A stretch of 64,000 nt of DNA from a virus (taxonomy: Duplodnaviria > Heunggongvirae > Uroviricota > Caudoviricetes): IMG/VR virus record IMGVR_UViG_3300032330_001609, positions 133,975 to 197,974 of that record. The stretch is one strand, 5' to 3'. Of this stretch, positions 56,256 through 57,981 are shown one piece after another. The first letter of the stretch is position 1; every line of letters starts with the position of its first letter. The translations under genes were made by a program, and so were the position numbers. The notes under the pieces are model-generated. The model was not told where the DNA came from. It was given only the letters and a program-made list of their open reading frames with translations, and made no database searches.

Positions 56256-56288
56256 AACCCCCGCTTTTATTTAAGTTGGGGGTTTTTA
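56256..56288 (+). terminator. rho-independent terminator
   Basis: aaccccc-gcttttatttaagtt-gggggtt followed by T5. Confidence 0.6.
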
Positions 56289-56348
56289 TGTATAGACCGG
56301 ACCCGAACTCCCTTCGGTCGGTTCCAAATCCCCCCGCCCCCTTTTTTA
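56288..56348 (+). repeat. hairpin-CCCCCCGCCCCC-T-run element, copy A
   Basis: atgtatagaccggacccgaactcccttcggtcggttccaaatccccccgccccctttttt. Confidence 0.7.
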
Positions 56349-56410
56349 TTTGACTATTAAAAATTAAATGTTTATCATTGGGTATTATAAATTATTAAAT
56401 CAAAAATATT

Positions 56411-56692
56411 ATGTACGAAGAAGACGTAACAGAAAGACCAAGAGAAATCGGGGACGGACCAAGAATTAACGGTGGGGATATGGTAAAACAAGACTACCGA
56501 AGTAAACAAGAAACACTTAGAGATTACGAAATCAATATTCGTTTTTTGAGTGTGGGATGTGTTGTTAGTGTGGGATGTAGACAGATTCCATTTAGAAACA
56601 TAACTGAGGCGATGGAAGAAGTTAACAAGTATGTTCAAAACCCAACTCAGGAAAGAGAGAGATGGTATAAGATATTTGATTCTGCTGAGTAA
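56411..56692 (+). CDS. hypothetical protein
   Basis: 93 aa. Confidence 0.5.
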   Translation: MYEEDVTERPREIGDGPRINGGDMVKQDYRSKQETLRDYEINIRFLSVGCVVSVGCRQIPFRNITEAMEEVNKYVQNPTQERERWYKIFDSAE

Positions 56693-56696
56693 AGAA

Positions 56697-56728
56697 TTAA
56701 CCCCCATTTCAACAATGGGGTTTTTTTA
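56697..56728 (+). terminator. rho-independent terminator
   Basis: aaccccca-tttcaacaa-tgggggtt followed by T7. Confidence 0.65.
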
Positions 56729-56760
56729 TGTAATATATTTGGACAATTAAAATATTGTTG

Positions 56761-56768
56761 TATCTTTG
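56761..56768 (+). promoter_or_regulatory. Bacteroidota-type -7 box
   Basis: ttgttgtatctttgtcaaaaat before 56784. Confidence 0.5.
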
Positions 56769-56783
56769 TCAAAAATTTTATTT

Positions 56784-56957
56784 ATGGCAAAAGTTAAATT
56801 CATTGTTGTTAAGGAGAAGTCCACACAGAGAGTTGTGGACCGTATTAGTTGTGGTCATCTCTATGGTGGTTTTCAAATTGGATATGAGGCCGGAAAACTT
56901 GTTGGTAAGTATCCGGAGGATGAGTATGTAATTTATTTGGAAGAAACAAAAATATGA
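56784..56957 (+). CDS. hypothetical small protein
   Basis: The ORF-track TTG start lies inside the promoter box; first ATG at 56784 (MAKVKFIVV). Confidence 0.4.
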   Translation: MAKVKFIVVKEKSTQRVVDRISCGHLYGGFQIGYEAGKLVGKYPEDEYVIYLEETKI

Positions 56958-57301
56958 GTAGTAAGTTAAATGGAATGATGGGTCAATACTTGGATAAGGC
57001 TTATGGTAACTTGGATTGTTTGGTATCCGAGAAGACGGTTGCTTGGTATAAGGATGGTTCTGTGGTTGCTAGTGTTAGCAAGGGAACTGATGGTCGTCTT
57101 AAATTGAGGTCAAAAGAATTTAATACCTTTAGACAAATTTTTTCATTATCTTGGGATGAACCTAAAGATGAATATCCATTATTGGATTTGATTGTTCCTT
57201 ATCTTAAATTTGATGGGGGTTCCCCCGCCATTCCTGTATTGGTTAGTTTGGGATTCATTGATGGATTGACCCATATTGCCCTTCCGAGTTATTGGAATTA
57301 A
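56954..57301 (+). CDS. hypothetical protein
   Basis: 115 aa. Confidence 0.5.
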   Translation: MSSKLNGMMGQYLDKAYGNLDCLVSEKTVAWYKDGSVVASVSKGTDGRLKLRSKEFNTFRQIFSLSWDEPKDEYPLLDLIVPYLKFDGGSPAIPVLVSLGFIDGLTHIALPSYWN

Positions 57302-57307
57302 ATGATG

Positions 57308-57362
57308 TGATTCCCGAACCGGACTCGTTTCACTCGGTACCAATCCCCCCGCCCCCTTTTTT
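57308..57362 (+). repeat. hairpin-CCCCCCGCCCCC-T-run element, copy B
   Basis: gattcccgaaccggactcgtttcactcggtaccaatccccccgcccccttttttt. Confidence 0.65.
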
Positions 57363-57369
57363 GGATTGG

Positions 57370-57384
57370 TGTATATTTATATTA
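57370..57384 (+). promoter_or_regulatory. GATATTTAT-class motif
   Basis: gtgtatatttatatt before 57395. Confidence 0.45.
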
Positions 57385-57394
57385 AAACAATATT

Positions 57395-57886
57395 ATGAAT
57401 AGAAGTTTTAGTAAGATTAGACATATTCAGGAATCCAATATTAAATTGGAAAAAAGAATATTAAATGAAGAATTTGATGATTTTGATTTTAGAGGTTTTC
57501 TTAAAAATGGTGAAACGTTAAGTAGAGATAAAATGCCCGATTTGATTAATGCAATGCAATCTACTTTGGACCGTTTTTATGAAAAACATAAAGAGGTTAT
57601 TGATAGACATTATTATTTGAAAAATAAGGAGGAACAACAGGAGTTGGCAAAAAATCCAAAATTTAGTTTATCGGTTATAAATAAATCAACTAATCCTCAA
57701 ATACTTGCTAAAGTTAAATGGCCGTTTGAATATAATGGTAACAATAATAAGAATGGTTATATTACGATGCACGTAGGTGGAAAAAACCAATTTCCTGAAT
57801 GGTTGGACACCCCTAATGTTAAGGAAATTAGTCGGAAGATTATTTCTAATAAATTATTATCAAACACTTCATTCCCTAATGATTAA
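57395..57886 (+). CDS. hypothetical protein
   Basis: 163 aa. Confidence 0.5.
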   Translation: MNRSFSKIRHIQESNIKLEKRILNEEFDDFDFRGFLKNGETLSRDKMPDLINAMQSTLDRFYEKHKEVIDRHYYLKNKEEQQELAKNPKFSLSVINKSTNPQILAKVKWPFEYNGNNNKNGYITMHVGGKNQFPEWLDTPNVKEISRKIISNKLLSNTSFPND

Positions 57887-57892
57887 AAATAC

Positions 57893-57921
57893 TACCCCAC
57901 TTTAACGAGTGGGTTTTTTTA
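57893..57921 (+). terminator. rho-independent terminator
   Basis: cccac-tttaacga-gtggg followed by T7. Confidence 0.6.
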
Positions 57922-57981
57922 TGTATAGACCGGACCCGGACTCCCTCCGGTCGTTTCTCAATCCCCCCGCCCCCTTTTTTT
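57921..57981 (+). repeat. hairpin-CCCCCCGCCCCC-T-run element, copy C
   Basis: atgtatagaccggacccggactccctccggtcgtttctcaatccccccgcccccttttttt. Confidence 0.7.

Follow-up and report, generated by a model that had tools for sequence, protein, structure and literature searches.

Composite terminator/promoter motifs known as PeSLs flank ORFans in the hyperplastic regions of T4-type phages, where they mediate modular shuffling (Arbiol et al. 2010, PMC2839356; Comeau et al. 2014, PMC4122927), and the stoperators of Cluster A mycobacteriophages are asymmetric, oriented intergenic sites near stop codons, co-oriented with transcription, which act via a DNA-bound protein and not via an RNA hairpin (e.g. 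PMC9283540). Here we describe an intergenic element with likeness to both, present in three copies (A, B and C) in a 64,000-nt stretch (the window) of the Caudoviricetes record IMGVR_UViG_3300032330_001609 (positions 133,975 to 197,974). The element is non-coding, strand-specific and about 50 bp long, and is composed of block 1 (CCGRACTCCCTYCGGTCG), a variable spacer of 4-7 nt, block 2 with the C box (AATCCCCCCGCCCCC), and a run of five to nine T. It is a new, widespread motif of an uncultured phage lineage and, at the same time, a sequence-constrained variant of the phage terminator/promoter junction cassettes, an already known kind of feature; its carriers are a lineage of uncultured large freshwater phages with promoters of the Bacteroidota type. 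A PeSL-like junction module is the description that fits all the data, and the reading that we tentatively favour is that the conserved part of this module is a protein recognition site.

The likeness to the PeSLs lies in the small terminator/promoter composites between ORFans of large phages, the G/C-tract stems, the repetition within a genome and the exchange points between otherwise unrelated sequences. The differences are several: the conserved part of the element is not a stem-loop, does not covary and, in half of the copies, has no partner for the C box; an extra invariant block of 18 nt is present; there are 2-4 copies per genome region compared with about 50 PeSLs; and the promoters are of the Bacteroidota type (TTTG / TAnnTTTG, TATATTTAT) and not sigma-70 promoters. 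A predicted promoter upstream of the ORFan and modular exchange between related phages were both found (see below), whereas the stable stem-loop terminator or attenuator of the PeSLs was not found in the element, which was therefore not filed as a PeSL. Of the genes beside the three copies, a weak ParB-like one (55382-56245) is the only one with a family match. With the stoperators, the element shares the asymmetry and the location near gene ends in one orientation, and we infer a comparable protein binding; the stoperators, however, are 13-14 bp long, number 20-30 per genome and have a known repressor, while the element is about 50 bp long, bipartite and present in few copies.

Occurrence of the element

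The exact CCCCCCGCCCCC box occurs at 56330-56341 (copy A), 57345-57356 (copy B) and 57963-57974 (copy C), always on the + strand, and scanning the window with up to 2 mismatches revealed no fourth site (chance expectation 0.49). A repeat search joined the copies into one 71-nt family, in which C and B are 90% and 61% identical to A. Scan and repeat search thus confirm the three co-oriented copies with an exact C box reported in the original prediction. The GC content of the window is 29-34%, and nearly all of its genes lie on the + strand.

The 20-mer AATCCCCCCGCCCCCTTTTT was found in 22 IMG/VR loci and block 1 in 29 (contigs of up to 322 kb), and the combined pattern matches at least 120 metagenome contigs, mostly from freshwater lakes, with some marine and activated-sludge assemblies, as judged from contig and sample names. 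A profile search over all the collected loci gave 234 matches, comprising 197 unique contexts and 174 unique core sequences; the family statistics given below rest on the IMG/VR loci plus the metagenome contigs among the matches listed. The stretches examined hold 2-4 copies per contig, and the related loci have genes in common with the window, at 65-90% nucleotide identity and in a changed order. No DNA or protein match was detected in 50,697 deposited phage genomes, Rfam gave no family at the gathering score and none at E<=10, and a literature search for the box sequence returned nothing relevant. The predicted novelty, conservation and intergenic location are thus borne out, and related phages do carry the element, in IMG/VR loci as well as in metagenome contigs.

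The 19-mer box AATCCCCCCGCCCCCTTTT also occurs 62 times in bacterial and archaeal genomes, inside another repeat (AATCCCCCCGCCCCCTTTTnnAAAGGGGG) and without block 1; the exception among the 62 is a 2.5-kb contig of 32% GC resembling a mis-binned phage fragment. This repeat, AATCCCCCCGCCCCCTTTTnnAAAGGGGG(A) (loci L023-L084), is present in 14 copies in one Candidatus Anammoxibacter genome, in 4 copies in a Methanobacteriota genome, and also in Desulfobacterales and other very diverse genomes. The exact 19-mer is common to the element and to the repeat of these bacterial and archaeal metagenome-assembled genomes, but in the repeat the C-run pairs with a downstream AAAGGGGG, and the hosts are unrelated (anammox bacteria, Desulfobacterales, methanogens); homology between the two was rejected because their architecture differs. 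Within the phage family, a diverged second half-copy (ccgacccgccgtttccgaccttcggtcggttctaatatcccccc) directly follows the element in L003 (1738-1763), L121, L153 and L167, forming tandem or degenerate copies.

The blocks are conserved in sequence and not in base pairing

Per-column counts over the 197 copies revealed a near-invariant block 1, (A)CC-CGRA-CTCCC-TYCGG-TCG, preceded by a variable 5' extension; a spacer of 4-7 nt, free in sequence and in length, followed by YMAAT; and an almost invariant C box, CCCCCC-G-CCCCC, followed by T5-9. Free spacers beside invariant blocks indicate purifying selection on the block sequences. In copy A, the variable 5' extension (ATGTATAGACCGGAC, 56288-56302), which includes the GACCGGA that the original prediction paired with TTCGGTC and which diverges widely across the family, is followed by block 1 (CCGAACTCCCTTCGGTCG, 56303-56320), whose ACTCCCT and CGGTCG are near-invariant in the 197 copies, and by block 2 (AAATCCCCCCGCCCCC) with T6 (56326-56347). 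Copy B has a variant block 1 (CCGGACTCGTTTCACTCG, 57319-57336), which lacks the 5-bp hairpin and is also present in loci L006 and L011, and block 2 (AATCCCCCCGCCCCC) with T6 at 57342-57362; copy C has block 1 (CCGGACTCCCTCCGGTCG) at 57936-57953 and block 2 (AATCCCCCCGCCCCC) with T7 at 57960-57981, all of them on the + strand.

Block 1 is palindromic in part, and its asymmetric centre, CTCCC, is the most conserved section. The original prediction had proposed selection on RNA or DNA secondary structure, based on a stem common to the copies and on a change between A and C regarded as compensatory; a hairpin of this kind could be a leader, a riboswitch-like structure or an N4-type hairpin promoter. 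A stem of 5-7 bp can indeed be drawn in A and C, and standard pairs fill 85% of the cells in the CCGRA/TYCGG register (an alternative register is 71% paired, with a small excess due to single sequences); in copy B, just a base of 3-4 bp remains. RNAalifold, however, found no consensus pair in the family alignment, and the states of the sole variable pair of the CCGRA/TYCGG register (A-T 91, A·C 44, G·T 36 and G-C 15 in 186 copies) are those expected under independence (Fisher p=0.73), so that the stem difference between A and C amounts to two independent transitions. Furthermore, G13 is replaced by A in 23 copies, opposite an invariant C and uncompensated, and the same lack of covariation was observed in the first 37 copies, where shuffles equalled the observed covariation score in 368 of 500 trials. 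The folding energies do not differ from those of shuffles: z is about -0.2 to -0.3 in 60 cores (median -0.2) and +0.6 in copy B, and the lower values of copies A (-2.8) and C (-2.0) arise because the folded stretches take in the upstream terminators. Neither an Rfam covariance match nor covariation supporting a fold was found, and as the 5-7 bp DNA hairpin that N4-type promoters require for recognition, the stem does not qualify, having an A·C mismatch in 24% of the copies and being missing from variant B. What is kept constant in the blocks is the sequence and not the pairing, and selection on secondary structure is the least probable of the explanations considered in this work.

The C box is likewise unpaired in the predicted folds. 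Long-range pairing with an upstream or downstream G-run was rejected, since the partner is absent in half of the copies: in 92 of 182, GGGG is missing both from the 70 nt before the C box and from the 32 nt after it, and in 18 a GGGG able to pair with it lies within 32 nt downstream. Two further candidates were rejected: a small ORF starting at an ATG in the 5' extension, whose frame is not conserved, the spacer having indels of 1-2 nt; and a G-quadruplex or i-motif, as the variants CTCAC and CTCGTTTCAC have lost the additional G or C tracts of block 1 and position 10 varies.

The 3' 20-mer of the element, GGTTCRAATCCCCCCGCCCC, resembles tRNA sequences, which we consider a lead on origin only. 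In L101, an unrelated phage contig, it is the genuine 3' end of a tRNA that ARAGORN identified, and in L098 and L099, by eye, it ends a tRNA-like sequence that ARAGORN did not call; tRNA-like 3' fragments ending likewise were recognised, also by eye, in the GC-rich phage contigs L100, L102 and L103, and GGTCG precedes a T-loop-like TTCAAAT, as in tRNAs. The element could then be the decayed 3' two-thirds of a tRNA gene (T-loop, T-stem and 3' strand of the acceptor), perhaps a former attachment or homing site. Nevertheless, ARAGORN calls no tRNA or tmRNA gene in the window or in 36 related loci, the Rfam tRNA model has no match, even partial, and the 5' strand of the T-stem is missing; at best, such a relic would account for the origin of the element and not for its conservation across 197 contexts, and we consider it very unlikely.

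Position between genes and coupling to promoter motifs

Neighbouring copies are co-oriented in 59 out of 59 pairs, at distances of 381-4215 nt. The end of a same-strand ORF lies within 120 nt upstream in 163 of 185 contexts, and the start of a same-strand ORF within 150 nt downstream in 152 of 172, two thirds of these 20-40 nt past the T-run. The exceptions (about 11-12% on each side) have divergent genes upstream or convergent genes downstream, and no strict rule of following a gene or of preceding one holds for the element; in L009, both copies are located at the ends of + strand genes facing minus-strand genes. The gap from the stop codon to the core is bimodal: 0-20 nt, where the element abuts the stop codon, and 40-70 nt, with a hairpin terminator in the gap. 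The former class makes up about half of the contexts, the element adjoining the stop codon where other cassettes carry a hairpin terminator, and a perfect hairpin terminator was detected within 50 nt upstream in at least 61 of 184 contexts by a strict test. Both situations occur in the window. As originally noted, two copies stand immediately 3' of canonical terminators, copy A behind that of the ParB-like gene (CCCCCGC..GTTGGGGG + T5, 56258-56287, + strand) and copy C behind CCCAC..GTGGG + T7 (57896-57920, + strand), while copy B abuts the stop codon of ORF 56954-57301 without an intervening hairpin.

This arrangement bears on the main alternative, a hairpin-independent terminator or insulator acting on nascent RNA or RNA polymerase, either as a C-rich, G-poor stretch loading Rho or a specific RNA-binding factor, or as a box plus U-run resembling the T7 class II signal, with release in T5-9. 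It would explain the orientation shared with the upstream gene, the replacement of hairpin terminators next to stop codons, the near-invariant T-run, the unpaired C box and the 18 copies that keep a downstream G-run with which a true hairpin could form, as well as the intact copies between convergent genes with nothing else between (L009, 11849-11921) and the exchangeability with hairpin terminators before the same promoter cassette (at 56738, behind a hairpin in the window and behind the element in L008 and L020). A U-tract of at least five residues is present in nearly all copies, but most have no hairpin beside it, and the G+C-rich hairpin of an intrinsic terminator was not found within about 2 nt of the U-tract. 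In at least one third of the copies, a perfect hairpin terminator stands 10-50 nt upstream, so that a second terminator would be redundant, and about 12% have no co-oriented upstream gene. Rho loading sites (rut) are C-rich, G-poor and unstructured, normally longer than 60 nt (about 60-80 nt) and not conserved in sequence; the element is C-rich and G-poor over about 45 nt, but it is no less structured than shuffles, shorter and, with its near-invariant blocks, far more conserved. The class II signal of T7 RNA polymerase is hairpin-independent and sequence-specific, with a conserved box directly before the U-run; box and U-run without a hairpin are common to the element, while the sequence differs, and no single-subunit RNA polymerase was seen in the window. 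The T-run followed by G also doubles as the TTTG of the next promoter, which is another explanation for the conservation of the T-run. A role as terminator or insulator is possible, although less probable than a protein recognition site. As for the regulatory leader of the original prediction, about one third of the contexts have a strong terminator just upstream and the promoter downstream, so that the element should be poorly transcribed there.

Of 183 contexts, 130 have the ATATTTAT motif (up to 1 mismatch) no more than 35 nt from the box, 112 of them at 15-20 nt past it, and in about 70% of the contexts the T-run supplies the TTTG of a following TTTG-N8-9-TATATTTAT-ATG promoter-like motif. 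The stretch between the box and ATATTTAT is variable in sequence, with a mean length of 17.4 (sd 2.1), and a longer T-run tends weakly to go with a shorter remaining spacer (Pearson r=-0.30, p=0.004; Spearman not significant). Another 18 contexts have a host-type TTTG-N19-TAnnTTTG promoter downstream, at variable distance, and in 45 neither motif was recognised. Among 337 element-free junctions of the same loci, (T/G)ATATTTAT before the ATG shows the same TTTG peak 8-9 nt upstream, indicating that TTTG-N8-9-TATATTTAT is a promoter-like motif independent of the element, to which the T-run plus G contributes the TTTG. The distance from the motif to the ATG is 4-6 nt in 40 of 91 distinct junctions and 12-17 nt in 38. 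If TATATTTA were a variant of the -7 element TAnnTTTG, the 4-6 nt class would give leaderless mRNAs, the C box would span about -30 to -41 and block 1 would be centred near -61. An ECF-sigma or sigma-54 promoter was discarded, because the spacing, judged by reading the sequence, does not fit.

In the window, the predicted promoter after copy A is of the Bacteroidota type (TTTG at 56349-56352, 20 nt, TATCATTG at 56373-56380; 56349-56380, + strand, gene start at 56411), a motif type shared with the repeat families D1 and D2. Copy B is followed by a predicted promoter at 57360-57380 (+ strand), whose TTTG consists of the final Ts of the T-run and a G and precedes 8 nt and TATATTTAT, with the ATG at 57395, and copy C by another at 57979-57999 (+ strand; TTTG, 8 nt, GATATTTAT), with the ATG at 58004, 5 nt past GATATTTA; with transcription starting where this geometry suggests, copy C would yield a leaderless mRNA. 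A promoter motif of one type had been predicted after each copy, which holds for B and C, with (T/G)ATATTTAT at 57372-57380 and 57991-57999, and fails for A, where TTTG-N20-TATCATTG is found instead. The uniform 45-65 nt to the gene start had to be abandoned, the distances from the end of the T-run to the ATG being 63 nt (A), 32 nt (B) and 22 nt (C).

The TTTG-N8-9-(T/G)ATATTTAT motif (window examples at 57360-57397, 57979-58006, 46864-46893, 50061-50090 and 54387-54416) is distinct from the host-type TTTG-N19-TAnnTTTG. Both are present in the window, the latter in about a dozen copies (repeat families D1 and D2), and we take it to be the Bacteroidota housekeeping promoter pattern.

Mosaic junctions and possible origin of the C box

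Comparison with the related loci revealed that genes and elements are combined differently from one locus to another. From the T-run onwards, the window and L015 share a homologous cassette of promoter, gene (56411-56692 in the window) and terminator, which in L015 follows the plain hairpin terminator of an unrelated gene. The gene at 57395-57886 is preceded by element and promoter in the window and in L010, and lies within an operon without either in L085 and L088. To quantify this mosaicism, pairs of junctions with a homologous 120-nt flank on one side were scored for whether the other side was also common. Both flanks were common to 5 of 128 pairs of element junctions, compared with 34 of 262 pairs of ATATTTAT junctions without the element (p=0.004), 16 of 93 pairs of hairpin-terminator junctions (p=0.002) and 35 of 51 pairs at random positions. 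All the junctions of this region are mosaic, those of the element most. The suggestion that the copies demarcate gene cassettes is in agreement with these results, the flanks being reassorted almost completely between related loci.

Such reassortment could also be produced by a selfish or mobility site without a regulatory role (a recombinase or homing-endonuclease target, or a homology patch), through which co-infecting phages would exchange small cassettes in the manner of integrons or PeSL mini-circles. Besides the near-complete exchange of flanks, this possibility is favoured by arrays in which up to four co-oriented copies each border a single small gene (L182, L122, L106), by the intact copies persisting without an upstream gene or without a downstream promoter, and by the HNH endonuclease genes located divergently upstream in L018 and L168. 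Yet no recombinase or endonuclease gene is consistently linked to the element, cassette boundaries also fall at the T-runs of plain terminators without it, terminal inverted repeats and a consistent target duplication are missing, and homology-driven exchange leaves the variable spacer beside invariant blocks unexplained. An integron attC site is not what was found either: the sequence is kept and the structure is not, and no integrase was detected in the ORFs examined, the loci not having been scanned exhaustively. A purely selfish site is, in our opinion, unlikely.

Two related candidates were discarded. The divergent upstream neighbours as GIY-YIG/T5orf172 endonucleases found no Pfam support, just the two HNH endonucleases being recognised, and an insertion with duplication of a T-run target does not apply, as the left T-run belongs to the upstream terminator and is absent where there is no terminator.

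The window also contains an element-free homologue of the copy B junction, in which a hairpin, AATCCCCCGC..GTTGGGGG (58849-58888, + strand), abuts ATATTTAT. The whole junction (58849-58902) reads AATCCCCCGC-TTTATTTAA-GTTGGGGG-ATATTTAT, and repeat family D7 aligns 57349-57399 with 58852-58902 at 80% identity. This alignment equates the C box, in its first half, with the 5' arm of what is predicted to be an ordinary hairpin terminator abutting a promoter. Several copies elsewhere retain a G-rich 3' arm (e.g. CCCCCCGCCCC-TTTTATTTC-GGAGTTGGGGG-ATATTTAT); in most, the 3' arm reads GGAATGATG, GGATTGGTG or GAATTGATG and is unable to pair.

A putative protein recognition site at cassette junctions

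According to the reading that we favour, the element would be the upstream half of a composite terminator/promoter junction between cassettes of small genes. The C box (AATCCCCCCGCCCCC) would be the counterpart of the 5' arm of the G/C hairpin terminators that are common in these phages, with a 3' arm degenerate in most copies, and the last TTTG of the T-run would serve as the upstream motif of the next promoter (TTTG-N8-9-TATATTTAT or TTTG-N19-20-TAnnTTTG). A sequence-specific protein would then read the element as duplex DNA, roughly between -30 and -70 relative to the promoter next to it, and the element would mark out a few promoters (2-4 per genome) by serving as their operator, activator or insulator; being a long near-identical repeat, the element may also be a preferred crossover point for homologous recombination, reshuffling the cassettes. 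A protein reading the duplex is suggested by the constraint on sequence rather than on pairing, the position of many copies between a strong terminator and a downstream start, where transcription should be low, and the small number of promoters per genome involved; from this we infer the binding, an action at the DNA level and a regulatory effect.

Several observations weigh against this reading. No candidate for the binding protein emerged, and the ParB-like gene (55382-56245) has no homologue in the other loci. Block 1 is just partly palindromic, and what is most conserved is its asymmetric CTCCC centre. About 11% of the intact copies have no co-oriented downstream gene or promoter (both copies of L009, that at 4373 in L010, and L093), contexts in which a site acting purely upstream of promoters would not persist. 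Such strong conservation of the T-run would be expected of a terminator more than of a promoter spacer, and the constant spacing to ATATTTAT could come from the ancestral hairpin and not from selection. As to the mosaic test, its loci were collected for carrying the element. A parS-like site of the ParB-like neighbour was considered and rejected, since the related loci lack that gene; a further CCGGA-N5-TCCGG site, found at 55177, could be due to chance.

A bolder proposal combines these activities: a new sequence-specific, hairpin-independent transcription signal of Bacteroidota phages, read by a dedicated phage factor as a terminator/insulator (C box plus U-run) or as the -35-region site of promoters that depend on a factor and are largely leaderless, and serving in addition as the exchange site of integron-like cassettes in large lytic phages. 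It seems rather improbable as a whole.

Gene regulation in Bacteroidota phages is almost unexplored, and the lineage has no cultured member. A near-invariant 50-bp signal in about 200 contexts amid reshuffled genes offers a handle on two open problems: it may show how phages partition the transcription of many small ORFan genes, including the TTTG-N8-9-TATATTTAT class with leaderless geometry, and how the hyperplastic regions of large phages exchange cassettes. The recognising factor, if found, could provide a portable insulator/promoter part for Bacteroidota genetics. Were the element a PeSL-like homology patch and nothing else, the PeSL concept would extend to a lineage unrelated to the T4-type phages.

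Other features of the window

The phage-like genes of the window include those for a head maturation protease-like protein, a virion protein with a lectin domain, a DNA methylase, glycosyltransferases and others. A protein encoded at 16529-17269 carries the head domain of the poly(A) polymerase / CCA-adding nucleotidyltransferase family, and one encoded at 8665-9849 is glutamine synthetase-like.

Two stretches (52775-53660 and 54860-55380) have no ORFs of 50 aa or more on the gene strand, are 65-84% identical in nucleotide sequence in at least 12 related loci, and invariably precede the first element with one variable gene in between. Within them are runs of C and of G, A/T tracts, an internal inverted match (53173-53235) and palindromes of the TTCCGGAA type, including CCGGAAAATTTCCGG at 55177, and Rfam gave no match; a role as replication origin or regulatory hub is conceivable, as is a large non-coding RNA. 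The palindrome TCCGGA (e.g. at 1461, 4828, 55176 and 55228) is about 4.6-fold over-represented in the window (33 occurrences versus 7.1 expected; none of 100 shuffles reaches 33), which is unusual for a phage, as phages tend to avoid palindromes.

Small genes at 24642, 28685, 63779, 41257, 41600, 42237, 42620 and 58004, and in many related loci, begin with near-identical first 8-12 codons. The common N-termini are MKIIITESQ..., MKVVITES... and, at 57395, MNRSFSKIRHIQ, and the remainder of each protein differs; these common gene ends may reflect a large paralogous family or recombination patches. Finally, an 88-nt direct repeat (22441-22528 / 23457-23544, 86% identity) includes the hairpin terminator that ends two minus-strand genes, and a 58-nt repeat (51648-51705 / 52928-52985, 79% identity), rich in GTATATTATAGTATACA palindromes, flanks the minus-strand genes at 51.7-52.5 kb.

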